A DNA stretch of 64,000 nucleotides from Gammaproteobacteria bacterium (GTDB lineage Bacteria; Pseudomonadota; Gammaproteobacteria; G965277405), in assembly GCA_965277405.1 (NCBI GenBank), contig OZ255726.1:887128-951127 (forward strand), written 5' to 3'. This document shows positions 22,788 to 63,170 of this stretch, one piece after another (position 1 is the first letter of the stretch; the number at the start of each line of letters is the position of its first letter). Below the pieces are notes generated by a model. The model searched no databases. It worked only from the letters and a program-made list of their open reading frames with translations, and had not been told where the DNA came from. The position numbers and the translations under genes were made by a program.

Positions 22788-22866
22788 CGAAGCATTGCTA
22801 TGGTTCACATTGACAGGATGGAATAAACTAGCAGTCATACATAAACTCACTTATCAAAGGGCTGTA

Positions 22867-25485: not shown

Positions 25486-25601
25486 ATTTAATAATGACTG
25501 CTTCACACTGAACTCTGTATCAAAAAGGACGCGCATTGACATTGATCAAGCGCAACTCAAACTTAATAATGGCTGCTGCGCTCACTGCATAAGTTCCCTA
25601 G

Positions 25602-25886: not shown

Positions 25887-26386
25887 TTTGTTAAGGCGCG
25901 AGCAGTTTACTGGCGACCACTGACTTGCATAGATTGTAAAGTTTTTTATCATATCTTCCAGTCTGTCGCCTGCATTGCTGCTGCTTTTAATTGATCTCTA
26001 TGTTTTGCGTGATTTACCTCTGTATTCGATCTTTTTTTTATACTGAACATGGATACACTTGCGTATCTGTCCCAGCTGGGGCATGTTATACACCCTGATT
26101 TTGGTCTCGGCCTGCATCAAGGTCACAGATGTGAGCGTTGATTGTAACGCCTGCATAAATTTGGTATCGTTGCGCTGCAGTCAGTCTGCTAGATGTCTTT
26201 GGCATGGTGATTTCACATTGGCTGAATGACCGTGAGATCCACTCACTGACCGTCAACATTCAATGTGTCGCGCTAGCGATTGAAGTCTACGTTTGCATGA
26301 AATAATCTAATTGCGTTGTTAATACTGTCAACACATCAGCTATTTCGTGAGAATGTAAGTATAACTACTTTGTCTAAGGAGGGATA

Positions 26387-43239: not shown

Positions 43240-44308
43240 CAGCTAGTCCGGCCATGAGTCGCGCTTGATGTTCTTGTTGCAAAGCAGTGATGGTTTCGTC
43301 TAAATCACCTTCGACAATAGTATCGAGTTTATACAGCGTTAAACCAATACGATGGTCTGTCATCCGTCCTTGGGGAAAGTTATAAGTACGGATTCGTTGC
43401 GACCGGTCACCACTACCGATTAAATTTCTACGTGTTTCTGCTTGTTGCTGATGCGCTTGCTGACGCTGCTGATCTTCGAGTCTTGCCCCAAGCAATGATA
43501 GCGCACGCGCTTTGTTTTTATGCTGTGAGCGCTCATCTTGACATTCAACGACAACGCCTGTTGGAACATGGGTGATGCGTATCGCAGAATCAGTGGTATT
43601 AACATGTTGCCCGCCAGCACCAGAAGAGCGAAAGGTATCAATGCGCAAGTCACTTTTGTCAATTTGTATTGCTAACTCTTCTGGTTCGACTAGTACAGCC
43701 ACTGTGCACGCCGATGTATGAATACGCCCTTGCGACTCAGTCGCTGGCACCCGTTGGACACGGTGTGCGCCTGATTCAAATTTCAAATGCCGATAAACAT
43801 CTTTTCCTTCAACCCGGGTGATAATTTCACGATAGCCTCCTTGTTCACTTTCGCTAATCGATACAACTTGCGTCGTCCAACGGTGTTGCTCAGCAAAACG
43901 CAGATACATCCGCTGCAGGTCAGCACAAAAAAGTGCAGCTTCGCTGCCACCAGTCCCTGCGCGGATTTCGACGAATACATTGGCGCCATCATCTTTATCT
44001 TTTGGTAACAATAGTGTTTTGATAGTCATTAATGTGTCGTCAATTCCATGTTGCAGGTCTTGCAGTTCCGTTACCGCAAGATTATGCATTTCTGCATCCG
44101 CTAATAATACAGATGTTGATTGGTGCTGCGCTTCAAAGCCTATATATGTCAACCATGCATTGTGGATTGGCTCTAAGTCGGCAATTTCTTGCATCAACGC
44201 CTTGTATACATCAATATCGTTAGTAATGTCTGGCTGTGCCAGCTGATTCGCAACAATGGTATGACGCTCTTCAAGAGCTTGGAGCCGATTGCGCAGTTGA
44301 TTATTCAT
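43232..44308 (-). CDS. prfA: Peptide chain release factor 1
   Basis: A GGQ motif (SGAGGQHVNTTDSAIRITHVPTG) and PxT-type RF1 features are present. It lies downstream of hemA. Confidence 0.92.
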   Translation of the reverse strand: MNNQLRNRLQALEERHTIVANQLAQPDITNDIDVYKALMQEIADLEPIHNAWLTYIGFEAQHQSTSVLLADAEMHNLAVTELQDLQHGIDDTLMTIKTLLLPKDKDDGANVFVEIRAGTGGSEAALFCADLQRMYLRFAEQHRWTTQVVSISESEQGGYREIITRVEGKDVYRHLKFESGAHRVQRVPATESQGRIHTSACTVAVLVEPEELAIQIDKSDLRIDTFRSSGAGGQHVNTTDSAIRITHVPTGVVVECQDERSQHKNKARALSLLGARLEDQQRQQAHQQQAETRRNLIGSGDRSQRIRTYNFPQGRMTDHRIGLTLYKLDTIVEGDLDETITALQQEHQARLMAGLADE

Positions 44309-45615
44309 GGTGTTGGTGTTTGCTGTTTGCTGTTTACGCTGGTAGCGGGTGGATGGATTGCAAAGAGGGTATGCGCTGCTTGCAAGAGTTGGGTATCGCC
44401 TTTCTTTCCGGCTTCACGCATTGCTACGGTTGGATGGTGGGCAATTTTTTGGATGAGCGCAGACGCCATCCGCTCGATGACGTATTTTGGATCATCTCCT
44501 CTGTTGAGCATAGTATATGCTTTGCGTATTTCTACATCTCGAACTGATTGTATATGTGCGCGAAATGGCCGCAACAATGCGTTATGATTGGTTTGATTGA
44601 TGCGCTGTTGCAGCTCATACATGGCTGTATTGATGATCAAGTGTGCGTGTTGAGCTGCTTGTTTGCGTAACTTACTGTTGCCTTCGATAATGGCTCCTAA
44701 GTCGTCAACACAATATAAAAATACATGGTCTATTGCAGCCACTTCATATTCAATATCACGCGGTACCGCTAAGTCAAAATACAGTTGAGTTGCATATTTT
44801 CGTTGTTTGCCTGCCTGCTCTACTTGCCCTTTTCCTACCAGCGGTAATGTGCTAGATGTTGCGCTGACTATAATATCTGCTTGGTGAAGTAGTTCAGGAA
44901 TTTCATACAGCGGGTAGGTGCTTCCCCCAGTTTTTTGCGCCAACCGCGTGCCACGAACACTACTGCGGTTGCATATCCAAGGAGGTGGACAGCCCAAATC
45001 TGACAGATATTGGGCGACCAAAACGATGGTATCGCCAGCACCAATAAGTAACACGCGTTTATTGTCAAATCTAGAGAATATATTTTTTGCCAATGAAACC
45101 GCTATATGGGCGACCGACATTGGTGATTGGCCAATTGCGGTGTTGTGACGAATGCGTTTAACAATATGGAATACAAACGGGATGACTGTAGCAAAAAAAT
45201 CCCCACAGTAATCAAGCTGCTTGGCGTGGTCGTACGCTGCTTTCATTTGCCCAAATATTTGCGGCTCACCGAGCGCCATCGATTCAAGACCGCAGGCAAC
45301 TATAATTAAGTGCCTAATTGCCTCGTCGCCAGTATAGCAATAATGGTCAGCAATTTTTTCGGCGACAACAAAGCGCAGCCACGTGTCAAGGATGCGTTGC
45401 AAGCAAACCTCAGTTGCCAACGTCTTGGCAACGATATACCACTCTATTCTATTGCAGGTTGATAGCACAAAACACTCATCAACGCCATGCTGTTGTAGTT
45501 CGGCGTATATCAACTCTATCGCAGCGGCATTTGGCAATAATCGCTCGCGCTGAGCAATATCTGTTTTGCGGTGATCTATGCCAACGATAAGGCATTGCAT
45601 ACTGTTGAGTTTCAT
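44305..45615 (-). CDS. hemA: Glutamyl-tRNA reductase HemA
   Basis: The N-terminus MKLNSMQCLIVGIDHRKTDI...LSTCNRIEWY has the catalytic Cys (CNR) and an NADPH domain. The protein is 436 aa. Confidence 0.9.
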   Translation of the reverse strand: MKLNSMQCLIVGIDHRKTDIAQRERLLPNAAAIELIYAELQQHGVDECFVLSTCNRIEWYIVAKTLATEVCLQRILDTWLRFVVAEKIADHYCYTGDEAIRHLIIVACGLESMALGEPQIFGQMKAAYDHAKQLDYCGDFFATVIPFVFHIVKRIRHNTAIGQSPMSVAHIAVSLAKNIFSRFDNKRVLLIGAGDTIVLVAQYLSDLGCPPPWICNRSSVRGTRLAQKTGGSTYPLYEIPELLHQADIIVSATSSTLPLVGKGQVEQAGKQRKYATQLYFDLAVPRDIEYEVAAIDHVFLYCVDDLGAIIEGNSKLRKQAAQHAHLIINTAMYELQQRINQTNHNALLRPFRAHIQSVRDVEIRKAYTMLNRGDDPKYVIERMASALIQKIAHHPTVAMREAGKKGDTQLLQAAHTLFAIHPPATSVNSKQQTPTP

Positions 45616-45626
45616 ACGTATGCTAA

Positions 45627-45910
45627 GGAACCTCTGATTAAGTCCATGATGGGCGAGACGGAGAAAAAACGCTGATGATAACTAGACGCAGTGCGCAGAT
45701 AATACTGGTGGTATTATTAAGTGCTGCAACGACGTTAGCGCAGCGTTTTTTCCCGTCCTTCTGTTGAATATACAACAGTTTGATGGTAGCGGTACTTGCT
45801 GTGTTGCATCCTTTGGCGTATATGCTACGGCATACGCCTGCGGAATGCGCCTTGCAATCATCAGCAATTACCATCAAACTCGCTCCATCAGCGACTTAAT
45901 CAGAGGTCCC
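45627..45910 (+). mobile_element. MITE copy 4 (284 bp) with a perfect TSD CTAA. It is inserted between the plsC stop and the hemA start.
   Basis: CTAA occurs at 45623-45626 and 45911-45914. The right TSD contains the plsC stop (TAG on the minus strand). The hemA ATG is 11 bp from the left end. Confidence 0.88.
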
Positions 45911-46630
45911 CTAATGAATGGAGCTACAAGTAGCTTCGATCCAGGTTCTTAGTTGTTGTGTTGCTAACTTACTATCTGGCATTGGTTGTATATGCGGACC
46001 AAAAATCACGCGGATAGTTCCAGGGTATTTAGTTATTTGATGCGCGGGCCAACGCGACCCAGCATTGTGTGCAAATGGAATAATTGGGCATTTGTTTTCA
46101 TGCGCCAGTTTTGTCGCGGTGCGGGTAAATGGTCCAAGTTCAGGTGCATAACGTCTGGTTCCTTCAGGGAAAATGAGTAAATTATGACCTTGAGATAAGT
46201 GGACACTTCCTTGCGCAATAACTTGGCGAAGTGCCTGTGTCTTATTTTTTCTAATCAGTGTTACTGGTTTGAGCAATGCTAATGCCCAACCAAATATTGG
46301 AATCCAAATCAGCTCATACTTTAATACACTGACCATTGGCATTGCAAATGATTGAATAACCAGTGTTTCCCATGGGCTTTGGTGGTTACCGGCAAACACA
46401 CAGGCACGATGCGCTTGCAATGCGGTGCGGATATGTTCTAAGCCATCGATTTGCATGGAAATATTGCAGCTGAGTTTTAGCCAAAATAACACAAACCGCG
46501 TGAGTACAGCAGGCACTATAAAGCGTTTTTTGAACGGCAGCATCCAACCAAATAGCAGCGATGCCACGCACACTATAGTGACCGCTACCACGTAGCCGAT
46601 ATAAAAAATTATTGAACGGAAAATCAACAT
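45911..46630 (-). CDS. plsC: 1-acyl-sn-glycerol-3-phosphate acyltransferase (PlsC family)
   Basis: The HX4D-type motif (NHQSPWE) and FPEGTR motif are present, along with an N-terminal TM segment. Confidence 0.8.
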   Translation of the reverse strand: MLIFRSIIFYIGYVVAVTIVCVASLLFGWMLPFKKRFIVPAVLTRFVLFWLKLSCNISMQIDGLEHIRTALQAHRACVFAGNHQSPWETLVIQSFAMPMVSVLKYELIWIPIFGWALALLKPVTLIRKNKTQALRQVIAQGSVHLSQGHNLLIFPEGTRRYAPELGPFTRTATKLAHENKCPIIPFAHNAGSRWPAHQITKYPGTIRVIFGPHIQPMPDSKLATQQLRTWIEATCSSIH

Positions 46631-50042: not shown

Positions 50043-50064
50043 GATAATTTAGGAGGAATACTAT

Positions 50065-50347
50065 GGAAGCTATGATTAAGTCCATGACGGGCGAGACGGA
50101 GAAAAAACGCTGATGATAACTAGACGCAGTGCGCAGATAATACTGGTGGTATTATCAAGTGCTGCAACGACGTTAGCGCAGCGTTTTTTTCCGTCCTTCT
50201 GTTGAATATATGATGGTTTGCTGCAGCGGTACTTGCTGTGTTGCATCCCTTGGCGTATATGCTACGGCATGCGCCTGCGGAATGCGCCTTGCAATCATCA
50301 GCAATTGCAGGCAAACTCGCTCCATCAGCGACTTAATCAGAGCTTCC
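50065..50347 (+). mobile_element. MITE copy 5 (283 bp) with a perfect TSD CTAT. It is inserted between the SD and start codon of the ATP-grasp gene.
   Basis: CTAT occurs at 50061-50064 and 50348-50351. The AGGAGG SD at 50051-50056 is now separated from the ATG (50350) by the element. Confidence 0.9.
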
Positions 50348-50349
50348 CT

Positions 50350-51615
50350 ATGGGCCTTACATTAGGGTTGGTCTGTCAGCGCAATAACAACGTGCCGTTC
50401 CTATTTGAAGCAGCGGCAGCCAATCGATGTGGTTTAGTACTTATTCACGCACCCGGTGAATCTCCCCCGACGCATATGCCAGCTGTTGTCCACACGTTGG
50501 AGCTCGACGTATTTGCTCATCCACAAGCCGCGCTCTCACAGCTTGAGGCTGAAAAAATCGGACTAGATGGCATATTAACCTGCCGTGAAGAGGCTGTGCC
50601 CTGGACTGCCTTAGCAGCCCAACGCCTCAAACTACCTGGACTCAACCCCGATGCGGCACTCATCACCCGCGATAAAGCACAGATGAGAAAAGCTTTTGCA
50701 GTGGCGGGGTTAAATGTTCCAAGCTATACCTCCCTGTCAGCAGACGCCCCAGTAACACTATCCGCTAGCATGTCATACCCGCTAGTCGTCAAACCCACAG
50801 GTGGCTACGCAAGCCAAGGTGTCATTCGCGTTGATAAAGCGAGTGATCTGAAAAATACAGTAGCTAAAGTGCGAGCAATCAATGCCAATGACCTCGACGC
50901 TTTCGCCACCACTACCAGCGGAATCAATTGGGGCGCTGTTATCGTTGAAGAGTATATCGACGGCCCCGAATATGCAGTAGAGGTGTTTGCAACCGAAGGG
51001 CGGGTACATGTACTCTCCATTGGTTACAAAGGCGAGCCCAAGGGTCCTTACTTTGAGGAGACAGTTTACCTCGCGCCACCACACCTCGCGCCAGCTACAC
51101 ATAAGGCAATTGTGGAGCAAGCAATTGGCGGCATGGAATCTTTAGGCCTTACTGACGGCCCAGGCCACTGCGAGTTAAGACTGCAAAATAGCACGAAACC
51201 CTATCTGCTTGAGATTGGAGCAAGGATCGGCGGGTCTGGGGTAAGCCAATTTATAGTACAGGAAAGTTCAGGAATTGATTATGCTGGCCTACAGTTCCGC
51301 CAGTCCGCCAAGTCCTCCCTTCCCGAACTTCCTGACATAGCGACGCCAATCGCGACTGCAGGAAACTGGATTATCCCACTCGGTGGTCATGGAAAATTGG
51401 TTGATATTGCAGGTCTACAAGTGGTTCATGAGCATCCAGAAACCAAGCGCGTGCTAACCTTCCTCGAACCTGGCACCGCTGTGCAACCCTATCCAATTTT
51501 CAGTGGGTATCCAGGTTTCGTGTTATCACGCCACACCGACTGGCAGTCTGGTATAGACTATCATCGCTGGCTCAGCCAAAAACTCCGTACACATTGGGTG
51601 GAGGTAGAAACTTAA
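50350..51615 (+). CDS. ATP-grasp domain protein (carboxylate-amine / L-amino-acid ligase-like)
   Basis: ATP-grasp motifs (PLVVKPTGGYASQGV...EEYIDGPEYAVE...ELRL...LLEIGARIGG). The start at 50350 is reconstructed from the pre-insertion site. The track ORF start at 50218 lies inside the MITE. Confidence 0.75.
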   Translation: MGLTLGLVCQRNNNVPFLFEAAAANRCGLVLIHAPGESPPTHMPAVVHTLELDVFAHPQAALSQLEAEKIGLDGILTCREEAVPWTALAAQRLKLPGLNPDAALITRDKAQMRKAFAVAGLNVPSYTSLSADAPVTLSASMSYPLVVKPTGGYASQGVIRVDKASDLKNTVAKVRAINANDLDAFATTTSGINWGAVIVEEYIDGPEYAVEVFATEGRVHVLSIGYKGEPKGPYFEETVYLAPPHLAPATHKAIVEQAIGGMESLGLTDGPGHCELRLQNSTKPYLLEIGARIGGSGVSQFIVQESSGIDYAGLQFRQSAKSSLPELPDIATPIATAGNWIIPLGGHGKLVDIAGLQVVHEHPETKRVLTFLEPGTAVQPYPIFSGYPGFVLSRHTDWQSGIDYHRWLSQKLRTHWVEVET

Positions 51616-51984: not shown

Positions 51985-52730
51985 TTAATGAACCTCTGAT
52001 TTAAAATGTTTACATGAATATCGCTGTGCTTGGACAGCTGTCATTGCGCTGGTCGCTATAATATCGTCAATACTGCAACCACGCGAGAGCTCATTCACTG
52101 GTTTGTTTGACCCTTGTAAAAAGGTCCAATCGCAGTCCCTCCGCCCATTCGCCCATTCGCCCATTAGTTGCGCAATTGTATCGCCACTATTCGCAACCTC
52201 TAGCGCTGGAAATATTAAAACATTGGCGCTGCATTGGCTGATTATTAACCAACCACAACCAATCACCATCAACAACCGCGTGCTATTGTGCCACGCTGGT
52301 ATGAATATGCAGTATATTTTTGCTTGTAAACTGTCGCAGCCATGAGTTTTGTGATCCCCAGCAATGGCACATATGCATGCGTCGCCGGGTAATTGCATGC
52401 TGCATGCAACAGATATTGTTCTTGTGTATCAATATAATCTTCTATAAACGGCGGATACCACAGCGGTAGTGGGTCGTAGCACGTAGTAAGCTGTTCAAGG
52501 TATGCGCTGCACCAATGCTGCCGTACATTTGTTTGCTTCCTTTTTACAGCACTTTGATAAACGCTTCTTGTATTGTCATTTGTATCATATACCGCTCCTG
52601 CTAAATAATTTCTCAGTAACGACCTATGGTCAATCAAGATAATGCGAGATTGAATAGCAACCGCGCAGCAACTGTACTGAATTTTGCACCATGCAGACAC
52701 ATCCAACAATAATTGCTGCGTAACTATCAC
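51985..52730 (-). pseudogene. Cys-rich hypothetical reading frame split over two overlapping ORFs (52269-52730 and 51985-52398). It is possibly a frameshifted remnant.
   Basis: The two ORFs lie in different frames and overlap by 130 nt. I recognise no family, and a (CGCCCATT)x3 repeat lies at 52142-52165. Confidence 0.25.
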
Positions 52731-52882
52731 GCTTGTCCAAACTCCCCCCAGCTACGAAAGCACCACCGCCCCATTAAAAAATCTATGCTGCATACCAACT
52801 ATCAACGCCTAAACTATAAATTCTAAATAGTTATGTCTCGCTTCACAATTGGTGCGGGCAAATACAATCCCAAAGCATCTAG

Positions 52883-53026
52883 GGAACCTCTGATTAAGTC
52901 CATAATGGGCGAAACGGAGCAAAAACGACGTGAGCACAGCGTTTTTCCTGTTCCTCTGTTGCATATACTGTTCAATATACAACGGTTTGGAGCAATTGCT
53001 GCATCAGCGCCTTAATTAGGACTTCC
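52883..53026 (+). mobile_element. Internally deleted MITE derivative (144 bp) retaining both termini
   Basis: The left end is GGAACCTCTGATTAAGTCCATAATGGGCGAAACGGAGCAAAAACG and the right end is ...GCGCCTTAATTAGGACTTCC. The flanks are CTAG / TTAA. Confidence 0.7.
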
Positions 53027-53149
53027 TTAAGTCAAAAAATCTAAAAATGATTCATATGGGGTATACGGCATACGTTTATCATATTATCATATTATCATTA
53101 GTCATATTACAACACTTGCTATTTACAAGCTTTGCCTAAGGAGAAATAC

Positions 53150-54949
53150 ATGACTGCTTCTATGCCTAATCGTCTATTCAACACCCCGATAGATACGCAA
53201 GACGATATAACAGCACTTATTCCTGATTTCCCGTTTGATTACGCAGTTTTCTTGGACACCGCTAAGATCAATCGCAAACCGTTGTTCAATATTCCTTCAG
53301 CCAATTATGGACAAGAAGTCTGTATTGTTGGAGGTGGCATGGCCGGCTTGACGGCAGCATACGAACTTATGAGAAGCGGACTCAAACCGATCATTTTTGA
53401 AGCTGATCGGATTGGCGGGCGTATGGACGCTAAGCCGATGAGTAACTCCGGCACATTGGCTGAAATGGGTTCGATGAGGTTTCCGCTAAGTGGGAAAGCA
53501 TTGTTCCACTATATCAATAAGGTTGGAGCCTATACTGCGCCATTTCCAAACCCAGGTACAGCTGCATCTTTTGGGAATCTGGTCAATTACCGCGGCGAAA
53601 ACTTCTATTACGAACGTGATAGTAAAAATTTCCCGATACCATCACACTTCGTTGCGCTTGAGCAAGATTGGCAGGACATGCTGGACGGTTCACCGACCAA
53701 TTTTCAGCAGATGCGCCAGGCGCTAATTCGCAAGGATATAACTACGATCAAGAGAATATGGAATAATCTTATCACGGGGACGGAGAGCATAGACAGTTTT
53801 GATAACATCAGTTTTTACAACTATCTAAAGATGTACGGCAACTGGTCAATGGATGAAATTGACCTGTTTGGTCAAGTGGGCTTTGGCACAGGTGGATGGA
53901 ATACAGATTTTCCAAACTGTATACTTGAGGTCCTTAGGGTCGCGATGACCTACCTTGATTCCGACCACCAGTTGATTTATGAAGGCTCCACTTTTGTACC
54001 TAGCTCACTTCTACAGCAGACCCCTAGTGTATTGGGTGACGTCATGGTGCATTGGTCTGAAAATACAACTGTTCAGTCTCTAACAGAATCGGTCTTGAAT
54101 AGTGTATCTGGCAACAAAGTTAATGCTTTTCAACCTTCTAACAGCGACACTAACAAAATCAAAGTTGAATACTCAGGTCCGAATGGCGAAAAGAAATCCC
54201 GAGATTTCAGTGCTGTAATTTACACTCCTCAAGTGCGCTGCCTACAGCAAATGGGTCATAATTACGCTGAACAAAATTCCTATAGCATTCTTACCCAGGA
54301 TATTATCGAAGCAGTTCAATACACTCACTACATGCAATCAGCAAAAACATTCATTGAGCTTAAAACACCATTCTGGAAGGAACGCGATTCAACTACCGGA
54401 AAGTATAAGATGAGTATCACTCTTACAGACCGTAAGACACGTGGGACCTATCTTCTTGACTATACCCGCGATGATGAAACACCGCGTCCTGTTGTATGCA
54501 TCTCATACACTTGGAACGATGATGCGCTGAAATATCTTCCGCTTAAATCCGCCGACCGTCTATATGGAGGAATTACGACCCTGTACGACATTGATCCAAA
54601 TTTAATGGGGCATCTGGGGCATGAGGTGACCGGCGACCCCATTACTATCTCCTGGGAAAACGAACTGTTCTACCTTGGTGCCTTCAAAAATAACCTTCCT
54701 GGCCAATACAGAATGCAAAGACGCCTGTTCACTCAGTTCATGCAAAATACAAGCTCGGTCAAAGATCGTTTTATCTTGGCAGGTGACGACATTTCTTGGA
54801 CGGCTGGATGGGCAGAAGGAGCAGTATCAACTGCCATAAATGCAGCAAATGCCGTCGCGGGCTTGTTCGAAGGCTCAACTTATCAAAATAACTCTGATCC
54901 TGTAAGCCGTTTTAATGACTTAAAGCCGGTCGAACTGAATGCTGTTTGA
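53150..54949 (+). CDS. Flavin-dependent amino-acid 2-monooxygenase (oxidative decarboxylase) of the Trp/Lys/Arg 2-monooxygenase - amine oxidase family
   Basis: The FAD dinucleotide motif VCIVGGGMAGLTAAYEL..GGR is present. By my recollection it resembles lysine 2-monooxygenase DavB-type sequences, for example the conserved block FGQVGFGTGGWNTDFPN. The SD AAGGAG is 6 nt upstream of the ATG at 53150. Confidence 0.75.
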   Translation: MTASMPNRLFNTPIDTQDDITALIPDFPFDYAVFLDTAKINRKPLFNIPSANYGQEVCIVGGGMAGLTAAYELMRSGLKPIIFEADRIGGRMDAKPMSNSGTLAEMGSMRFPLSGKALFHYINKVGAYTAPFPNPGTAASFGNLVNYRGENFYYERDSKNFPIPSHFVALEQDWQDMLDGSPTNFQQMRQALIRKDITTIKRIWNNLITGTESIDSFDNISFYNYLKMYGNWSMDEIDLFGQVGFGTGGWNTDFPNCILEVLRVAMTYLDSDHQLIYEGSTFVPSSLLQQTPSVLGDVMVHWSENTTVQSLTESVLNSVSGNKVNAFQPSNSDTNKIKVEYSGPNGEKKSRDFSAVIYTPQVRCLQQMGHNYAEQNSYSILTQDIIEAVQYTHYMQSAKTFIELKTPFWKERDSTTGKYKMSITLTDRKTRGTYLLDYTRDDETPRPVVCISYTWNDDALKYLPLKSADRLYGGITTLYDIDPNLMGHLGHEVTGDPITISWENELFYLGAFKNNLPGQYRMQRRLFTQFMQNTSSVKDRFILAGDDISWTAGWAEGAVSTAINAANAVAGLFEGSTYQNNSDPVSRFNDLKPVELNAV

Positions 54950-55002
54950 CAGGAAATTTGGCAGCGGTGTCTAAACTAGCGCTGAACAGCGTTGTAGCCT
55001 AG

Positions 55003-55294
55003 GGGATCTCTGATGAACTAGCTGACGGAATGAGTTTGCCTGCAATTGCTGATGATTACAAGGCGTAGAGCGCATGACCTAGCTATACGCCAAGGGATGC
55101 AATACAGCAAGCGTAAGCAATTGCCGCAAACCAAAAGTGTATTCAACACAACGACGGAGAAAAAACGCTGTGCTACCGTCGTTGCAGCACTTGGCAATAC
55201 CCACAGGACCCACCAATATTATCTGCGCACTGCGCTTAAGTTTCATCAAGCGTTTTTCTCCGTCTCGTCCAGCATGGACTGAATCAGAGCTTCC
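55003..55294 (-). mobile_element. MITE copy 6 (292 bp), in reverse orientation, between the monooxygenase and ureohydrolase genes
   Basis: Both TIRs are present (GGGATCTCTGATGAA... / ...GACTGAATCAGAGCTTCC). The flanks are CTAG / TTTA with no TSD. Confidence 0.82.
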
Positions 55295-55562
55295 TTTATG
55301 GGACAGCCGCTGAGTTCACTTGTCAACCAGACCGCGTGGAGTGTAGTAACTAATACGTTGAAATCTTCAAGCCTAGTGCCCGATAGTCGAAAAATAATGC
55401 AGGTTGCGCGCTTAGAACCTTACAGAAGCTTAATAATATGACACTCCAACTATTCAGACCTAACATCGTATAAAAACAGCCTATTTGTGCAGCACGTCTG
55501 TTTAATCTAGGTAATTTCTAAGCTATAATTCGTTTTCGCAGTATATTTTGGGGGAATGGAAT

Positions 55563-56516
55563 ATGGTGCCAAAAGAATATTTTCAACCGTTAAGTGGCAA
55601 CGAAATGCCCCGTTTTGCTGGGCTGTCTACTATGATGCGTCTGCCTGCTAAGCACACTGCACTTGACCTTGATGCCTGTTTTATCGGTATCCCGTTAGAT
55701 ATTGGCACATCGAACCGATCAGGAACACGCTTTGGACCGCGACAAATACGTGCTGAGTCTAGCATGCTGCGCCCCTATAATATGGCGACTGGTGCGGCAC
55801 CCTTTGATGCCATGCGGGTTGCCGATATCGGTGATGTGCCAATTAATACATTTAATTTAAAAGACAGTATACAGCTAATTTCAAAGTATTATTGCGATCT
55901 GCTAAAACATGATGTTATTCCTCTAACGATGGGCGGGGATCATACGATTAGCTTCCCTATTTTGCAGGCAATCGCGGCCAAACATGGACCAGTAGCTTTA
56001 ATCCACATTGACGCTCACGCCGACATTAATGACGAGATGTTTGGTGAAAAAATTGCCCATGGCACACCCTTTAGACGGGCCTTTGATGATGGTTTACTGA
56101 ACAACGACAAGGTTTTCCAGATAGGATTGCGCGGCACAGGATATTCACCAGAAGACTTTAACTGGTCCCGTCAACAAGGGTGGACGGTTGTTCAAGCCGA
56201 AGAGTGCTGGGGCAAATCTCTTGCACCATTAATAAAGAATATCAGCAAAAAAATCGGCAACACCCCAACGTATATCACCTACGATATTGACAGCCTTGAC
56301 CCGGCATTTGCACCTGGCACTGGTACGGTAGAGATAGGTGGGTTGACCACATGGCAGGCTTTGGAACTCGTGCGGGGATGTGCTGGTCTTAATATCGTAG
56401 GAGGTGATCTGGTTGAGGTGTCACCACCGTATGACCCCAGCGGCAATACCGCTTTAATTGCAGCAAATCTGCTGTATGAAATGCTCTGCGTGCTACCAAA
56501 AAACTATCAAGACTGA
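55563..56516 (+). CDS. Arginase-family ureohydrolase (agmatinase / guanidinobutyrase / guanidinopropionase-like)
   Basis: The binuclear Mn motifs GGDHTIS, DAHADIND and SLDPAFAPGTG are present. The protein is 317 aa. The ATG at 55563 is preceded by a GGGGGA SD. Confidence 0.85.
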   Translation: MVPKEYFQPLSGNEMPRFAGLSTMMRLPAKHTALDLDACFIGIPLDIGTSNRSGTRFGPRQIRAESSMLRPYNMATGAAPFDAMRVADIGDVPINTFNLKDSIQLISKYYCDLLKHDVIPLTMGGDHTISFPILQAIAAKHGPVALIHIDAHADINDEMFGEKIAHGTPFRRAFDDGLLNNDKVFQIGLRGTGYSPEDFNWSRQQGWTVVQAEECWGKSLAPLIKNISKKIGNTPTYITYDIDSLDPAFAPGTGTVEIGGLTTWQALELVRGCAGLNIVGGDLVEVSPPYDPSGNTALIAANLLYEMLCVLPKNYQD

Positions 56517-56542
56517 CTAAATCTAAACAGGGAGAAAATAAT

Positions 56543-57646
56543 ATGTCGAAACGCAAACAAACAATCAAATTGAGCCGCCGCGCCTTTGTCGGCACTGCGA
56601 TTACAGCAGGAGTTGTGGCGGCCTCAATAGGCGCGCCTTCAATCTTACGGGGAGCAGCAGATCGAACCCTCAAAGTGGGGGTATACGGCGGTTACTTTCA
56701 GGAATCTTTCGACAAGCATATTTTTCCTGATTTTACAACTGCAACGGGTATCAAGCTTGAATCAATTGGAGAGCCGACAGGTGAAGCATGGTTGGTACAG
56801 CTGATGGCGGCTGCGCGGGCAAACCAAGCGCCTGCTGATGTCTCGATGATGGCACAAGTTGCACGTTTGAAAGGTGAGAAAGCAAAACTTTGGGGAGCGT
56901 TGGATGATAGCGCATTAACGAATGCTGCTAACTTACCTGATCACTTCGTGCACCGGTATGAAGATGGCAAAATCAATAGCTTAGGCGCTGTGGCTTGGTA
57001 TGTCACATTGGTTACAAACACTGATGTTTACAAAGATGCGCCAACATCATGGAAATCTTTATGGGATTCGGCAAATGCTGATAGTCTTGGCCTTATGGCA
57101 CTCGTAACCAACTCTTTTCTTTTAGAAATCACAGCTAAGACATGGTTCGGTGGCACCGGAATCTTGGACACAAAAGATGGCATTTTGCAGACCATGCACA
57201 AGCTGGAAGAAGTAAAACCAAACGTGCGACTGTGGTATCGCGACGAAGGTCAATTCCAGCAAGCCTTGGAAACTGGCGAGATCCCTATGGGCGAGTATTA
57301 TCACGATGTTACTGGACTGGCTGCGTCTGCAGGAAAGCCTGTAAGATCAACGTTCCCAGTAGAAGGTGGGGTGCTTGACTCAGGGTCTTGGTGTGTTTCC
57401 AAAGCATCCAAAAAAGTGACAGAAGCACAAGAATTCATCAACTATATGTGCCAACCTGAAATTCAAGCTAAACTGTCGCGTTTCGTCGGTACGGCACCAA
57501 CTGTACGGCGTGATCTGACGGATTTGACCGATGAAGAATATGCCGCAGTTGCAAGCCCCATTGATCCAATCATCCCACGTTATGATTTATATAGCGAACG
57601 TGAAGATTGGCTGACTCAAAAATGGTCTGAATTGGTAACTGGATAA
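56543..57646 (+). CDS. Periplasmic polyamine-type substrate-binding protein (PotF/PotD-like) with a Tat signal
   Basis: The twin-arginine motif SRRAFVGTAI is followed by an SBP family 1 fold. It is the first gene of a PotFGHI-ordered operon. Confidence 0.8.
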   Translation: MSKRKQTIKLSRRAFVGTAITAGVVAASIGAPSILRGAADRTLKVGVYGGYFQESFDKHIFPDFTTATGIKLESIGEPTGEAWLVQLMAAARANQAPADVSMMAQVARLKGEKAKLWGALDDSALTNAANLPDHFVHRYEDGKINSLGAVAWYVTLVTNTDVYKDAPTSWKSLWDSANADSLGLMALVTNSFLLEITAKTWFGGTGILDTKDGILQTMHKLEEVKPNVRLWYRDEGQFQQALETGEIPMGEYYHDVTGLAASAGKPVRSTFPVEGGVLDSGSWCVSKASKKVTEAQEFINYMCQPEIQAKLSRFVGTAPTVRRDLTDLTDEEYAAVASPIDPIIPRYDLYSEREDWLTQKWSELVTG

Positions 57647-57672
57647 ACCAATACTGGCTCGCCAAAAAATTT

Positions 57673-58764
57673 TGACGGGGACCATACACATCAACTATTG
57701 CGAGAATATTCATTAGCCAGGTTAAAATTGAAAATTTCACAAAGAAATTTGGTCATTTTACCGCCGTTGATAACGTCTCTCTTGATGTTGCTGATGGTAG
57801 TTTAGTCTGCTTGCTTGGTCCTTCTGGTTGCGGCAAGACGACTTTGCTGCGCTTGATTGCTGGTTTAGAAGACCTGACAGCAGGAAAATTAACGGTTGGC
57901 GGCGAAGATTATGGCGAGGTTCCAGCGCATAAACGTAATTTTGGGATGGTATTTCAATCTCTAGCTCTTTTCCCGCATCTGACAGTCGGCGAAAATATTG
58001 CATATCCGCTTAAGATCAGGGGAGCTTCTGCCACCAAGCAGCGAACTCGTGCAACCGAATTGCTCGAATTGGTAAAACTGGCAGGTCTGGAAGATCGCAA
58101 AATTTATCAACTATCTGGTGGTCAGCGGCAACGCGTGGCAATCGCACGTGGTCTAGCAATTGACCCCAACGTATTTTTGTTAGATGAACCGCTTTCGGCA
58201 CTTGATGCCAATTTACGGGAACATATGCAGATTGAACTCAGACAATTGCAACAAGATTTGGGCGTAACAACAATTGTAGTGACCCATGACCAGCGTGAGG
58301 CCATGTCGATGGCTGATATAGTTATTGTTATGGAAGCAGGAAAAGTACAACAAGTTGGATCGCCCATCGACATTTATCGTAACCCAGAAAACACCTTTGT
58401 CGCCAATTTTATCGGCGTCAACAATTTACTAACAGGACAGATGCTCGACGCAACAACCTTTGATTTTGACGGCAATCATATCGACCTTACGGACGATGAT
58501 AGCGTACATTACGAAATTGGCAGGCCAGCCATATTATCATTTCGGCCTGAGGATGTCGTTGTATCTACTAAAAAAGGTAGCGCACAACTTAACGGTGAAG
58601 TTCTTTTTATTCGCGATCTGGGGGCAAGCGTAGAGATTTTGACCCGTGTTGGCGATATTGAGATCACTGCGGTTTGTGCGCCCAAACATCGACCAGATGT
58701 GAATATTGGTGATGTCGTCTGGCTTGAGATCCACACTGGTCGCACAACGGTACTGGCATCATAA
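57673..58764 (+). CDS. ABC transporter ATP-binding protein (PotG/PotA-like). The start codon is uncertain and may be non-canonical.
   Basis: Walker A (GPSGCGKTT), LSGGQ, Walker B and a C-terminal TOBE domain are present. A conserved N-terminal segment (VKIENFTKKFGHFTAVDNVSL) lies upstream of the track start (a TTG at 57811). The only in-frame candidate starts there are the TTG at 57673 or ATT/ATA codons. Confidence 0.75.
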
Positions 58765-58772
58765 GCACGCGC

Positions 58773-59606
58773 ATGTCTTTGTTTAAGGATAATAAAGGGG
58801 TTAGCTATGCACTGCTAATGTTGGTCGTATTTTTCTTTATTCCCTTTTTGATTATGTTTGCGGTCAGCTTCTTCAATCGAGACGAAGGTGCATTTTTTCA
58901 TACCGCCTTTGAGTTGAATAACTATGTGCGTTTCCTAACGCCGTTCTTCGGAAAAGTACTGTTAACATCGCTTGGCCTGTCCATAGCGACGGCTGTCATT
59001 TCTGTATCAGTTGCCCTGCCATTCACCTATTTCGTGACCCGTATGTCAGCGGTTCGGCAATCGATTATTCTGGTTTTTCTATTGTCAGTGTTATCGCTAT
59101 CAGAAGTCATAATCGGTTTTGCATGGTCCATCTTGTTGTCAAAGACAGCAGGCGTGGGCAACCTGCTAGCTGCGCTCGGAATTCTTGAAGCATCAAAGAG
59201 TTTTACGCCCAGTCTGGGTGCATTACTGCTCGGCGTGACTTATCTTGGGTTTCCCTACGCGGTTTTGGTGATCTACCCCGCCTTGTCGCGGCTTGACCCT
59301 GAGATTCCCGAAGCGGCGCGGATGTTTGGCGCATCTCCAATCAAAAGCTTCCTAAATGTCACTGTCCCTTTGATGAAAAACACCATTATAGGAACGCTCA
59401 TTCTGGTGTTCGCCTTCACCTTGGGTGCATATCTGTTGCCACAGGTGCTGGGTCGCCCCCAGCATTGGACATTATCCGTACATATTACTGACCAGGCAAT
59501 TTTTCAATCTAATCTTCCATTTGCGGCAGCAATGGCTATCTTCTTGATGCTTGTCTCATTGGCATTGGTTGGGCTGTCGGCACTGGTCATCAAAAAAACG
59601 GCATAA
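58773..59606 (+). CDS. ABC transporter permease (PotH/PotB-like)
   Basis: There are six TM segments and an EAA loop (EAARMFGASP). Confidence 0.85.
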   Translation: MSLFKDNKGVSYALLMLVVFFFIPFLIMFAVSFFNRDEGAFFHTAFELNNYVRFLTPFFGKVLLTSLGLSIATAVISVSVALPFTYFVTRMSAVRQSIILVFLLSVLSLSEVIIGFAWSILLSKTAGVGNLLAALGILEASKSFTPSLGALLLGVTYLGFPYAVLVIYPALSRLDPEIPEAARMFGASPIKSFLNVTVPLMKNTIIGTLILVFAFTLGAYLLPQVLGRPQHWTLSVHITDQAIFQSNLPFAAAMAIFLMLVSLALVGLSALVIKKTA

Positions 59607-59609
59607 CTC

Positions 59610-60407
59610 ATGTCCAAGCTGATAAAAAACACTTTTATCCTGCTGGTCTTGGTATTCCTTGCCGCGCCACTTGTTGTTGTTCTTGGTGTCTCCTTAAATA
59701 AATCCAAGCAGATGTTGTTCCCGCCTGAAGACTTTTCGCTACATTGGTATGCTGATTTTTTTCAGGCAAAGGATTGGCTAAATGCGTTGAGCAATTCTCT
59801 GGTTATTGCGCTTGGGGCAAGCACGCTTGCAGTCTCAATTGCCTTGCCGTTGGCACTCTACATTTGGCGAAAACAGAACAGCCTCGCCAAAGCACTTTTT
59901 GGGCTTGGCGTCGCGCCGTTCATGCTGCCACCAGTCATTTCTGCACTCGGCTTTATGATATTCTGGATAACCATCGGATTTTACGGGCAAATCTCTGCAA
60001 CGATAATTTCTCATGGAGTATTTCTGGTGACACTACCACTTGTCACGATTTCACTGGGTCTTGATTCCATCGACAAACAGTTGATTGAAGTCTCGCGCAC
60101 CATGGGAGCCGACAAGAGAACAGTCTTGCGAACAATTATCTGGCCGTTGGTAAGGCCCTACATGGTTTCAGGTTTTGCCTTTGCGTTCGTCCTCAGCCTG
60201 AACGAGTATATTATCGCATATATGGTGTCAGGCTTTACAGCGGAAACACTGCCAATCAAAATATTCAATTCGCTTAGATATGGCTATACACCAGTCATGG
60301 CTGTTGTTGCGGTGTTTTTCGTGATGACTGCGGTTGTGGTATTCGGAACCTTTGCTCTGTTTGGGGATTTGCCTAAACTTTTGGGCGCAGAGAGAGCGGA
60401 CAAATGA
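59610..60407 (+). CDS. ABC transporter permease (PotI/PotC-like)
   Basis: There are six TM segments and an EAA-like loop (EVSRTMGADKRTVLRTIIWPLVRP). Confidence 0.85.
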   Translation: MSKLIKNTFILLVLVFLAAPLVVVLGVSLNKSKQMLFPPEDFSLHWYADFFQAKDWLNALSNSLVIALGASTLAVSIALPLALYIWRKQNSLAKALFGLGVAPFMLPPVISALGFMIFWITIGFYGQISATIISHGVFLVTLPLVTISLGLDSIDKQLIEVSRTMGADKRTVLRTIIWPLVRPYMVSGFAFAFVLSLNEYIIAYMVSGFTAETLPIKIFNSLRYGYTPVMAVVAVFFVMTAVVVFGTFALFGDLPKLLGAERADK

Positions 60408-61213
60408 GTGGAACTGATAAAGAAATGATCTTAGGTCTTTGGCAAGGCGTCGGTATCCGCGGTGAGGTGACGTCGAACATCGAAGACATTCAGCGAATAG
60501 CAATACAGGCAGCTGCTGAGGGTGTCGAACTTCTGGTTTTTCCCGAATGTTTTTTGACGGGATACTTAGCGTCGGCAGATGTAGCAGAGATCGCAGCGCA
60601 AGTAGATGGTCTTGTCTTTGATAAATTGGAGAGCATCGCGGATGAATACAACATCGCCTTGGTTGTTGGCTCCTATGAAGTCTCCACGCGAGGGGTCTAT
60701 AATGCGGCCTTTGTCGTGCATCCTGGAATAGGATTAGTCGGAATTTATCGAAAACGCATGCTCTATGGCGCTTGGGAAAAGCGGACATTCCAGCAAGGCA
60801 CCGAACCGCTGACCTTCAAATGGAAGGGACTAACAGTCGGGGTGTTGATCTGCTTTGATATTGAGTTTCCAGAGCGCACCAGAGAATTGGCAAACTTAGG
60901 AGTCGATTTGATTGTTACACCAACCGCACTGATGGAGCCGTTTGCTAAAATTTCATCGCTTGTTGTCCCAACGCGGGCGCTGGAAAACGGTATATATGTA
61001 GGCTACGCAAACCGGATAGATCGTGAAGAAGAATTTGAATATGTCGGTGGTAGTTGTATTATTGCCCCAGATGGGACGGATATGGCGCGGGCGGAAAAAG
61101 CAACAGCAACGCTGCTGACTGCTAGTATATCAACACAATACCGCGATTTGATAACATCAAAAATCAACTACCTTGTTGAAGTTTCTCGCGAAAATACGCA
61201 TGTCATTGATTGA
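60404..61213 (+). CDS. Carbon-nitrogen hydrolase family amidase (nitrilase superfamily, DavA/omega-amidase-like)
   Basis: The catalytic glutamate context LLVFPECFLTGY, the Cys context VLICFDIEFPE and a 269-aa length fit the CN-hydrolase family. The start overlaps the upstream permease stop. Confidence 0.8.
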   Translation: MSGTDKEMILGLWQGVGIRGEVTSNIEDIQRIAIQAAAEGVELLVFPECFLTGYLASADVAEIAAQVDGLVFDKLESIADEYNIALVVGSYEVSTRGVYNAAFVVHPGIGLVGIYRKRMLYGAWEKRTFQQGTEPLTFKWKGLTVGVLICFDIEFPERTRELANLGVDLIVTPTALMEPFAKISSLVVPTRALENGIYVGYANRIDREEEFEYVGGSCIIAPDGTDMARAEKATATLLTASISTQYRDLITSKINYLVEVSRENTHVID

Positions 61214-61264
61214 GTATCCCCGCACAATGAAAAATGCAACATCAGGAATGGTTGCTTATCTTTA

Positions 61265-61302
61265 ACAACGAGGATATGCGCTAACAACGAGGATATGCGC
61301 TA
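61265..61302. repeat. 19-bp x2 perfect tandem duplication (ACAACGAGGATATGCGCTA)
   Basis: Read directly from the sequence, in the intergenic region upstream of the second SBP gene. Confidence 0.85.
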
Positions 61303-61510
61303 AGCATAAAATTCCACATTCTCCAGCAAGGACTCCTACTGCGGCTGTAGCCCTTAAGATCTGCACCAGTTGAGAACACCTATCCGGCAACAATAACAAC
61401 CTTTAATTAGAGGTTGTCAAGCAACAATTATTGCGAGTTTTCTTCTTGTAACTCCTCTAATTTTAGAGGGGATATCATGATGCCGAAAAAATAAAACATC
61501 TATGTAAATT

Positions 61511-61563
61511 GTGATATAATGTAAACTAAGTGTGTTGGATGTACTGGATGCATAGATGCATCC
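61511..61563 (+). promoter_or_regulatory. Candidate sigma70 promoter with an extended -10 (TGaTATAAT at 61512-61520), followed by a palindromic operator-like site GGATGCAT-AG-ATGCATCC (61546-61563) and an extra GGATG half-site
   Basis: TATAAT lies 67 nt upstream of the ATG at 61587. An 8-bp perfect inverted repeat lies between the -10 and the SD AAGGAG (61575-61580). Confidence 0.45.
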
Positions 61564-61586
61564 AAACGAACAACAAGGAGAAAAAT

Positions 61587-63170
61587 ATGACCAAAATGCT
61601 TAAGCAATCTCTGATTACGTCGATAATTAGCAAGACGGGGCAACAAGATGATAATAATAGCCGCAGTACGCAGACAATACTGCTGGGTATTATCGAGTAC
61701 TTTAACGACCTTCGCGCAGCGCTGTTTGCCGCCGATGTGTTGAAGATACTGTTGGTTTACGGTACATGTTGTGTTACTCGCTTGGCGGATATGCTCAGGT
61801 CTGCGGTTTGCGCCTTGCAATCATCAGCAATTGCCATCAAGCTCGCCAATCAGCGCCTTAATCAGAGCTTCCTTAGAATACTAGCTATTTCTGCCACAGT
61901 ATTTGTCACATTGCCGGTTTTGGCAAAGGACACTCCTGTTACTTGGTGGTATGAACGCGCCACCCCTGAGCAACAAGCTGCACTGTCGGAACTGATGATT
62001 GATAAATTCAATGCTGCTGACAATGGCAACACTCTCACAATCGACTACCGTGGCAACGAATTGGATAAGCAGCTGCGGATTGCACTTTTATCAGGAACTG
62101 GTCCGGATGTAGTCAATACACCTGGTCCGTCTTTCGTGGCAACAATGGCACGCGCTGGGCAATTGCTGGCACTCGATGATATCGCTGTTAAAAAAGGCTG
62201 GAACGACCGAATCCTGCCATTCTTCATGGATTTGGGTCGGTTCGATGGCCATCTGTATGCGCTGCCAAAAACCTATGAAACACTTGGATTGTTCTACAAC
62301 AAAAAGGTCATGGCAGAGAATGGCTGGGCGGTACCTACAACTCTTGCAGAACTGACGACAGTTGCCGATGCAATGCTGTCTAAAAACATTATCCCATTTG
62401 GGTCTGGCAACTCGGACTGGCGTCCAGCCAACGAATTTCAGGTATCAATTGCTCTCAACTCCATCGCTGGTCCAGACAACATGCAAAAAGCGCTAACAGG
62501 TGAGTTGCCGTGGACGGCAGAACCTTTTGCCAAAGCCATCAATACACTAGATAGCTGGTGGAAAAAAGGCTATTTTGGACCTGACTACTTCTCACTCACC
62601 GGTGATCAGGTCATGGCTAACCTGGCTAATGGTTCTGCTGCGATGGTGCCAACCGGCACATGGAACTTCCAACTAGTCCCAGAATATTTTGGCGATCAAC
62701 TTGACAACATTGGTTTTGTAGGTTTTCCCAGCGGCGAAGGAGTGGCATACCCAATATACGCACTTGGCATTGGCTCCACACTCTCTATCGCGGCAAAAGC
62801 CAACAACCCTGAAGGTGCTGCCAACGTCATTGATTTTATCTTTAGTAAAGGTTTCTATCAGGACATGAACAGTGTTTGGCAAGGTGAGTGGAACATGCCG
62901 CTGCGTGACCTCAGCAACGTAAAACTGAGCGAAGATATCATCCCGCTGTATACGGAATCTATGGCTGCCTTGGCTGAATCCGTGAATCAAAGTCAATACG
63001 GTTACACTACTTGGACGTTCTTCCCTCCTGCAAGCAACTCTTACATTGTGAGTGGCATCGAGCAAGTTTGGCTGGATGATATTACTACCGAAGAATTCCT
63101 CGCAGAACTTGATGATATTTTCAAGCAGGAATTGGCTGAAGGCAAAGTCGCGGATATCCCTGCGCGTTAA
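61587..63170 (+). CDS. Periplasmic substrate-binding protein (SBP family 1) of a CUT1-type ABC importer. A MITE is inserted in frame inside its signal-peptide coding region.
   Basis: An SBP_bac_1-like mature domain is present. The ATG at 61587 follows an SD. Codons 1-5 (MTKML) are followed by a 91-codon MITE-derived insertion and then RILAISATVFVTLPVLA|KDTP. The frame stays open through the element. Confidence 0.75.
   Translation: MTKMLKQSLITSIISKTGQQDDNNSRSTQTILLGIIEYFNDLRAALFAADVLKILLVYGTCCVTRLADMLRSAVCALQSSAIAIKLANQRLNQSFLRILAISATVFVTLPVLAKDTPVTWWYERATPEQQAALSELMIDKFNAADNGNTLTIDYRGNELDKQLRIALLSGTGPDVVNTPGPSFVATMARAGQLLALDDIAVKKGWNDRILPFFMDLGRFDGHLYALPKTYETLGLFYNKKVMAENGWAVPTTLAELTTVADAMLSKNIIPFGSGNSDWRPANEFQVSIALNSIAGPDNMQKALTGELPWTAEPFAKAINTLDSWWKKGYFGPDYFSLTGDQVMANLANGSAAMVPTGTWNFQLVPEYFGDQLDNIGFVGFPSGEGVAYPIYALGIGSTLSIAAKANNPEGAANVIDFIFSKGFYQDMNSVWQGEWNMPLRDLSNVKLSEDIIPLYTESMAALAESVNQSQYGYTTWTFFPPASNSYIVSGIEQVWLDDITTEEFLAELDDIFKQELAEGKVADIPAR
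61604..61872 (+). mobile_element. Diverged MITE copy (269 bp) inserted in frame within the SBP gene. Flanks are TTAA / TTAG.
   Basis: The left end is GCAATCTCTGATTACGTCGATAAT...GACGGGGCAACAAGATGATAATAATAGCCGCAGTACGCAGACAATACTGCTGGGTATTATCGAGTAC. The right end ...GCGCCTTGCAATCATCAGCAATTGCCATCAAGCTCGCCAATCAGCGCCTTAATCAGAGCTTCC aligns along the full length of the family consensus. Confidence 0.8.

Follow-up and report, generated by a model that had tools for sequence, protein, structure and literature searches.

A candidate arginine 2-monooxygenase route in a patchwork gammaproteobacterial locus

We analyzed a window of 64,000 nt from contig OZ255726.1 of the Gammaproteobacteria bacterium assembly GCA_965277405.1 (all positions below are those of the window), in which seven co-directional genes occupy the plus strand at 53150-61213. 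The cluster begins with a gene for a flavin amino-acid 2-monooxygenase, which is followed by a block of six genes (55563-61213) encoding a GbuA-type ureohydrolase, the four components of an ATP-binding cassette (ABC) importer and a CN-hydrolase. On balance, we lean towards a three-step arginine route operating at this locus: the monooxygenase would oxidatively decarboxylate intracellular L-arginine to 4-guanidinobutanamide, the CN-hydrolase would convert this amide to 4-guanidinobutanoate and ammonia, and the ureohydrolase would release 4-aminobutanoate (GABA) and urea. The importer would most probably take up an intermediate of the pathway or its analogue (4-guanidinobutanamide or 4-guanidinobutanoate), and not arginine. 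The locus itself is not one co-evolved cluster but a patchwork of parts of different origin.

Breakdown of arginine through arginine 2-monooxygenase (EC 1.13.12.1) and guanidinobutyrase (EC 3.5.3.7) is a classical pathway of old standing, and its genes have seldom been described outside the supply of polyketide starters in Streptomyces. An initial annotation of the window, made from its letters, had read the three enzymes as a complete pathway of this kind; its enzyme assignments and chemistry hold up, whereas uptake of the amino acid by the importer cannot be assumed. None of the seven reading frames is interrupted or truncated in comparison with its homologues (Table 1). From the ureohydrolase gene to the CN-hydrolase gene the gaps measure 26, 65, 8 and 3 nt, after which the CN-hydrolase start overlaps the stop of the preceding permease gene by 4 nt. 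The ureohydrolase most likely starts at the ATG at 55563, giving 317 amino acids.

The ureohydrolase

Among proteins of solved structure, the ureohydrolase matches GbuA best (489 bits), followed by GpuA (313 bits), the best agmatinase (191 bits) and arginases (at most 127 bits). By BLASTP it shares 66% of its residues with Pseudomonas aeruginosa GbuA (3NIO) and 46% with GpuA. The metal-ligand motifs GGDH, DAHAD and DIDSLDP are kept, column-aligned with those of 3NIO and fitting the patterns GGDH, DAHxD and DxDxxDP, which bears out the earlier description of an arginase-family enzyme with intact ligands. Of two agmatinase models, TIGR01230 was passed (211 bits against a cut-off of 174) and NF002564 was failed (289 against 302); nevertheless, the closest match is GbuA and not an agmatinase of the SpeB type. 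The protein is thus, with good confidence, predicted to be a guanidinobutyrase (EC 3.5.3.7), in concordance with the guanidino substrate that had been argued from the presence of a ureohydrolase.

The CN-hydrolase

The CN-hydrolase has the fold of its family and a Glu/Lys/Cys triad, which can be read from the sequence in FPECF, YRKRM and LICFD, so that its designation as a C-N hydrolase amidase stands. Its best solved relatives are short-chain aliphatic amidases (approximately 110 bits). No curated NCBIfam cut-off is reached, the AguB model scoring 82 bits against a cut-off of 410. In a neighbour-joining tree without bootstrap, the CN-hydrolases of the block and of its relatives interleave with those adjacent to 2-monooxygenases, including the CN-hydrolase of the widespread Streptomyces CN-hydrolase-monooxygenase pair.

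The monooxygenase

The monooxygenase gene begins at the ATG at 53150, with AAGGAG 6 nt ahead of it, and its product is identical to database protein P0001 (P and L codes denote retrieved related proteins and loci). The family assigned to it in the initial annotation proved right; the length, given as 600 amino acids, is 599. The protein has the amine-oxidase fold, and the FAD-binding GxGxxG motif near its N terminus reads GGGMAG. Pfam Amino_oxidase spans residues 70-575 and NAD_binding_8 also matches; there is no signal peptide. Its best solved relative is 3WE0, the lysine/ornithine/arginine oxidase-monooxygenase of Pseudomonas sp. AIU 813 (407 bits), with tryptophan 2-monooxygenase next (190 bits).

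The substrate-binding residues of the AIU 813 enzyme have been defined in a structural paper (PMC5832979). In 3WE0 numbering, the window enzyme retains Arg102 and Tyr416 (for the alpha-carboxylate and amine), the Phe473/Trp516 cage, Trp418, the plug loop VGFGTGGW and Asp238 (for the cationic side chain). At 14 of 15 inspected positions it agrees with L001 and L086, two enzymes linked to GbuA-type ureohydrolases, and at five (236, 237, 254, 258 and 515) it differs from the lysine enzyme, with Ser237 replaced by Thr, Cys254 by Leu, Gln258 by His and Ala515 by Gly. The mutation C254I converted the reference AIU 813 enzyme to an oxidase (PMC5832979). Monooxygenases paired with an amidase can likewise have Leu or Met at position 254 and, since these adjoin an amidase gene, such enzymes must make amides. 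The window sequence appears compatible with either an amide or an oxo-acid product, and Leu at 254 does not decide between the two.

In a neighbour-joining tree of a reduced set, the enzyme falls in a clade of proteins of approximately 600 amino acids apart from both the lysine enzyme and the actinomycete enzymes (200/200 bootstraps). The phylogenetic check proposed in the initial annotation therefore found no clustering with the lysine enzyme, to which the window protein is 40.6% identical over 539 columns of the tree alignment. Within this clade it is probably the earliest branch (139/200 bootstraps). The closest database homologues are 46-47% identical; neither exact look-ups nor scans of genome and metagenome collections with this one protein returned a match or a close relative. 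The clade was also considered as that of the L-arginine oxidase AROD, for which solved structures exist from Pseudomonas sp. TPU 7192 (PMC11694665), and this identification was rejected, no chain of that name being among the PDB matches of the window enzyme (E up to 0.001).

A subgroup of the clade carries Asn in place of Asp238 (the enzyme at L089, as well as P0010, P0020, P0023, P0039 and P0041). The member at L089 (2066-11157) adjoins a LIV-type ABC system, an Amidase-family gene and an M20 peptidase gene, with no ureohydrolase, and the subgroup probably acts on a non-basic amino acid. Because the Asp types are linked to GbuA-type genes and the Asn types have no ureohydrolase beside them, we infer that arginine is the substrate of the Asp238-bearing monooxygenases, a conclusion by association and not a proof.

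Monooxygenase, amidase and guanidinobutyrase clusters in other bacteria

Clusters of a monooxygenase, an amidase and a GbuA-type ureohydrolase recur independently in unrelated bacteria. L086 has the order Aminotran_3, monooxygenase, CN_hydrolase, Arginase; at L001 the monooxygenase adjoins genes for a TonB-dependent receptor, a major facilitator superfamily (MFS) transporter, a beta-lactamase-family hydrolase, Arginase, Aldedh and Aminotran_3; and in the Burkholderiales loci L005, L006 and L088 it stands with an NCS1 transporter, a CN-hydrolase and GbuA. The three functions co-occur at L001, L086, L053 and the Burkholderiales loci, where the ureohydrolases are 67-74% identical to GbuA, and not in the related loci of the block described below. 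This recurrence supports the order arginine, 4-guanidinobutanamide, 4-guanidinobutanoate, GABA plus urea, and the independent clusters are themselves candidate catabolic genes in Proteobacteria and other phyla.

L053 (2211-11671), from a gammaproteobacterial metagenome-assembled genome, holds an SBP_bac_3 amino-acid-type ABC system, an opine-oxidase-like pair of DAO and Pyr_redox_2 genes, GbuA, a CN-hydrolase and a monooxygenase. This monooxygenase is the sister of the lysine-type enzyme (200/200 bootstraps), and the locus may be an opine-to-arginine-to-GABA cluster.

Origin of the six-gene block

Positions 55501..61103 are 83.6% identical at the nucleotide level, over 5604 bp, to Rhodobacteraceae bacterium Araon29 (CP046865.1), and this is the sole similarity between the 64-kb window and the Araon29 locus. 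At the protein level the six block products are 77-89% identical to those of Araon29, with ratios of nonsynonymous to synonymous substitution (dN/dS) of 0.08-0.19 for all six genes. In contrast, the monooxygenase has no database homologue closer than 46-47%, and the best non-self match of the housekeeping protein HemA (44305-45615), a gammaproteobacterial protein found among 5.8 billion, is only 42% identical. The horizontal origin of the block follows from this difference. The lineage of the source genome is very sparsely sampled; each cluster protein for which a look-up was made forms a singleton at 90% identity.

Both Araon29 and marine metagenome contigs show LysR followed by ureohydrolase, binding protein, ATPase, two permeases and CN-hydrolase, that is, the same six genes in unchanged order with no monooxygenase, and the closest relatives (L090-L095) likewise carry LysR upstream. 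Among 83 surveyed loci with a related binding protein, none has a monooxygenase gene within 9 kb of the block, so that the block works without this enzyme. We conclude that it is very probably a mobile, horizontally acquired module independent of the monooxygenase. The expectation that the genes would be conserved together as one cluster is accordingly contradicted by all 83 loci. A ureohydrolase gene lies directly upstream in 24 of the 58 related loci with enough upstream sequence (18 of GbuA type, six of another type), and the CN-hydrolase is present in 24 of the 33 with enough downstream sequence. A metagenomic copy of the block, L120 (4603-8687), adjoins TrbI and TrbL conjugation genes and has a zinc alcohol dehydrogenase gene inserted before the CN-hydrolase gene.

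The literature searched gave no description of a substrate for this block, which is widespread in marine Alphaproteobacteria. Since it combines an importer with both hydrolases and its relatives have no oxidase, its native substrate would be something that the hydrolases use directly. Most economically, in view of the CN-hydrolase tree, this would be 4-guanidinobutanamide, 4-guanidinobutanoate or a close analogue, to be turned into GABA, urea and ammonia after uptake. We tentatively suggest, as a possible though doubtful extension, that the block without monooxygenase is a dedicated scavenger of 4-guanidinobutanamide or a close guanidino-amide, and that the window has caught the recruitment of a monooxygenase, the loss of the regulator and the relaxation of the importer. 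If so, the amide formed by arginine 2-monooxygenases would be an exchanged, nitrogen-rich metabolite. The junction of monooxygenase and block in the source genome gives a testable guess at the substrate of the block.

The importer

The binding protein carries a twin-arginine signal (SRRAFV), and its homologues in marine Alphaproteobacteria and metagenomes are 61-86% identical. The PotD model scores it at 52 bits, the cut-off being 582, and the PotF model gives no match to it. Its solved relatives, among them PotD, a putrescine binder and the agropine-binding AgtB, score approximately 50 bits, and its superfamily takes in binders of GABA, opines and polyamines. For the permeases the scores are 125 bits for PotB (cut-off 348) and 122 for PotC (cut-off 326), and for the ATPase 239 bits for PotG (cut-off 613). 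All components thus fall below the curated Pot cut-offs, short of equivalog level, and they are nearer to PotB, PotC and PotD than to PotH, PotI and PotF. Of the PotFGHI-like importer proposed initially, the twin-arginine (Tat) signal, the ATPase and the two permeases stand, whereas the PotFGHI label does not. Neither a PotF-like identity nor a polyamine ligand can be claimed from these scores, and similarity to Pot proteins does not reveal the ligand. The two permeases (58773..59606 and 59610..60407) are 86% and 87% identical to their L090 counterparts.

The frame of the ATPase gene is open from 57676 and contains no ATG, GTG or TTG before the Walker A motif, while the first 32 residues align with homologues. 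The ATT at 57712 occupies exactly the alignment position of the ATG in L090, L091 and L092, with GAGAA 7 nt upstream. ATT can start translation at a low level, as in Escherichia coli infC.

Regulation and state of the locus

As had been stated before, no regulator gene was found in or beside the cluster, and no LysR remnant was found in the window. The missing regulator reflects the loss of the LysR gene that the relatives carry. Searches for riboswitches and other RNA elements gave no credible match in 52400-55650 and only two tRNAs in the whole window, both elsewhere. A TATAAT hexamer can be read 35 nt upstream of the ureohydrolase start. With the regulator gone and a monooxygenase gene bracketed by repeats upstream, the block would have become self-sufficient for arginine, provided that the genes are expressed together.

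Amino-acid changes unique to either branch were counted against L090, L091 and L094. The four transporter proteins have 75 such changes on the window branch and 43 on the Araon29 branch, whereas the ureohydrolase and CN-hydrolase together have 22 on each. The difference hints, if only modestly, that in the source host the enzymes may matter more than the importer.

The repeats belong to a palindromic element of approximately 290-300 bp resembling a miniature inverted-repeat transposable element (MITE), with about nine copies in the window (Table 1). Both copies reported initially within the cluster are present, but the upstream one, described as a 144-bp form, measures 151 bp, and a third, degenerate copy at 61601-61875 had gone unlisted. 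The copy in the gap between the monooxygenase and ureohydrolase genes has terminal and nested inverted repeats. Copies at 14366, 22498, 25597, 45623 and 50061 are 90-94% identical to one another; those at 54998 and 61601 are only 68-80% identical to this group and, judged by this lower identity, are probably older. No copy of the element was found in any retrieved locus of other organisms.

Alternative explanations

A number of observations weigh against the arginine route. The adjacency of monooxygenase and block, seen in none of the 83 related loci, is unique to the source genome and could be fortuitous, and 613 nt with a MITE inside separate the monooxygenase gene from the ureohydrolase gene. 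Promoter and terminator scans of 52400-61700 gave counts in line with those of shuffled controls and do not establish co-transcription of the monooxygenase gene with the operon. The binding residues, compared with one characterized reference sequence, do not confidently separate arginine from lysine or ornithine, and the CN-hydrolase of the block is only 32-44% identical to those adjacent to monooxygenases. The ATT start together with the loss of LysR means that the importer may be poorly expressed. Finally, the scanned open reading frames of at least 200 amino acids (27 of the 34 upstream of the cluster, plus the flanking ones) yielded no regulator, no urease, and neither GABA aminotransferase nor succinate-semialdehyde dehydrogenase.

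Several of these points would also be explained if the monooxygenase were functionally unrelated to the block: a 2-monooxygenase or oxidase of lysine, ornithine or another basic amino acid that became a neighbor by chance, perhaps through a MITE-associated rearrangement. Its absence from the related blocks, the interrupted gap and the MITE copies on both sides of its gene would be expected in that case; moreover, the best solved relative prefers lysine, Asp238 serves lysine, ornithine and arginine equally, and Leu stands where C254I made the reference enzyme an oxidase. We nevertheless consider this explanation unlikely. The enzyme is distant from the lysine enzyme (40.6% identity) and sits in another clade with full bootstrap support, GbuA-type ureohydrolases recur in linkage with its clade relatives, Leu or Met at 254 also occurs in amidase-paired monooxygenases, no 5-aminovalerate genes lie nearby, and the sole amidase near the monooxygenase is the CN-hydrolase of the block. 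It is distinctly unlikely, in turn, that the block, in the window and in its relatives, serves to take up and break down 4-guanidinobutanoate or some other compound of guanidino type while the CN-hydrolase acts elsewhere, on an N-carbamoyl compound, a nitrile or an unrelated amide, leaving the amide step unserved. The GABA, opine and polyamine binders in the superfamily of the binding protein and the failure of the CN-hydrolase to reach a curated cut-off leave room for such a substrate, and the presence of an upstream ureohydrolase in only 24 of 58 loci, six of them with a different type, suggests varied substrates. On the other hand, the CN-hydrolase gene is kept in 24 of 33 loci and is translationally coupled to the permease gene by the 4-nt overlap, and its product interleaves with monooxygenase-adjacent ones in the tree and has aliphatic amidases as its nearest solved relatives.

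An agmatine or polyamine route, composed of a Pot-type importer, an agmatinase (SpeB) and an AguB-like N-carbamoylputrescine amidase, would account for the passed TIGR01230 model, for Pot components as the best named matches of the transporter and for the weak AguB match. We regard it as very improbable: the ureohydrolase matches GbuA at 489 bits and the best solved agmatinase at only 191, the AguB model remains at 82 bits with a cut-off of 410, the Pot models are all far under theirs, no agmatine deiminase is present, and SpeB and AguB are alternative routes, not one. We likewise see only a slight chance that the locus is decaying and no longer a working unit. The change from ATG to ATT at 57712, the lack of any LysR remnant, the three MITE copies and the excess of transporter changes on the window branch (75 against 43) are what decay would leave; however, the seven frames are intact and full length, dN/dS is 0.08-0.19, the enzymes show no excess in rate, ATT can initiate at a low level, and the ureohydrolase gene has the TATAAT hexamer in front of it.

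Comparison with known systems

The chemistry of the arginine route is already known. What differs is that a GbuA-type ureohydrolase and an ABC importer are attached, that the locus is a mosaic by origin, and that a widespread block without monooxygenase exists. In Streptomyces, an arginine monooxygenase and a 4-guanidinobutyramide hydrolase make polyketide starter units, according to the work of Hong, Fill and Leadlay (2013) as related in PMC5082578 and PMC10322714. The reaction order and enzyme families are those of the window, and in most of the Streptomyces and related actinomycete loci among L009-L085 a CN-hydrolase gene lies immediately upstream of the monooxygenase gene, its product falling among the block CN-hydrolases in the tree. 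The window monooxygenase is, however, only approximately 41% identical to the Streptomyces proteins of L009-L085 and falls in another clade than these. Furthermore, in the characterized Streptomyces cases the product goes on to a CoA ligase and polyketide synthases, whereas the window has a GbuA-type ureohydrolase and an ABC importer instead.

In lysine clusters, the partner amidase of the DavB-type enzyme is a CN-hydrolase (PF00795), a pairing that has been used for annotation (PMC12462448). With DavB/DavA of Pseudomonas and the AIU 813 enzyme (3WE0, PMC5832979), the window shares the fold, the plug loop, the aromatic cage, Asp238 and the CN-hydrolase partner. It differs from them in the separate clade of its monooxygenase, only 40.6% identical to 3WE0, and in having a guanidinobutyrase attached in place of 5-aminovalerate genes.

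The window ureohydrolase and P. aeruginosa GbuA (3NIO) share 66% identity and the same metal-ligand motifs. P. aeruginosa GbuA is controlled by the LysR-type regulator GbuR and is fed by 2-ketoarginine routes, and the relatives of the block resemble this pair in carrying an adjacent LysR-family gene. In the window, 4-guanidinobutanoate is instead proposed to come from the amide. We know of no Pseudomonas GbuA with an attached importer or CN-hydrolase. With PotABCD and PotFGHI, the importer shares the four-component make-up of a binding protein, a TOBE-domain ATPase and two permeases, at scores far below the cut-offs. The analysis sets apart a highly conserved, mobile block for uptake and hydrolysis in marine bacteria that is now annotated merely as a "spermidine/putrescine" transporter, and the locus offers an example of a catabolic pathway assembled from differently derived parts.

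Features of the locus and its surroundings

Table 1. Genes of the cluster and MITE-like copies in the window.
Feature	Position	Strand	Basis
FAD-dependent basic-L-amino-acid 2-monooxygenase, 599 aa, proposed arginine 2-monooxygenase	53150..54949	+	Pfam Amino_oxidase 135.7 bits
GbuA-like guanidinobutyrase-type ureohydrolase, 317 aa	55563..56516	+	Pfam Arginase family 310 bits
Tat-signal periplasmic binding protein, distantly PotD-like	56543..57646	+	Pfam SBP_bac_8
ABC ATPase, 350 aa, ATT start	57712..58764	+	Pfam ABC_tran and TOBE_2
ABC permease, PotB-like at superfamily level	58773..59606	+	Pfam BPD_transp_1
ABC permease, PotC-like at superfamily level	59610..60407	+	Pfam BPD_transp_1
CN-hydrolase amidase, 269 aa, proposed 4-guanidinobutanamide hydrolase	60404..61213	+	Pfam CN_hydrolase (PF00795) 150 bits
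Internally deleted 151-bp MITE-like copy, upstream of the monooxygenase gene	52879..53029		Both termini align with full copies
Full MITE-like copy of ~300 bp, in the gap between monooxygenase and ureohydrolase genes	54998..55297		78-80% identical to copies at ~22500, 25597 and ~50065
Degenerate third MITE-like copy, downstream of the cluster	61601..61875		68-76% identical to full copies; 34-nt terminal inverted repeats
MITE-like copies in the window	9184-9235, 14366-14650, 22498-22788, 25597-25889, 45623-45913, 50061-50350, 52879-53029, 54998-55297, 61601-61875

At the upstream edge of the locus, 51985-52730 on the minus strand may be a broken gene: an open reading frame (ORF) of 137 amino acids matches only positions 260-319 of 319 of the phosphate acetyltransferase domain PTA_PTB, and it overlaps an ORF of 153 amino acids without a family match. 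Downstream, the ORF listed at 61530-63170 (546 amino acids) encodes a sugar-type binding protein (SBP_bac_1, residues 148-440) and begins within the degenerate repeat; its true start is probably downstream of approximately 61880.

At 4750-9165, co-directional genes for an M20 peptidase, an NCS1-family transporter and an amidohydrolase resemble a hydantoin- or pyrimidine-utilization set. NCS1 transporters also accompany the monooxygenase and GbuA genes in the Burkholderiales loci. On the minus strand at 499-4635, a gene for a CofC-like guanylyltransferase heads four tightly packed co-directional ORFs, a group that may serve biosynthesis related to cofactor F420 in a gammaproteobacterium-like genome. 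The two tRNA genes lie at 12560-12646, inside the ORF listed at 12523-13692, and at 25411-25482, overlapping the end of the ORF 24547-25431 approximately 115 nt before a repeat copy.

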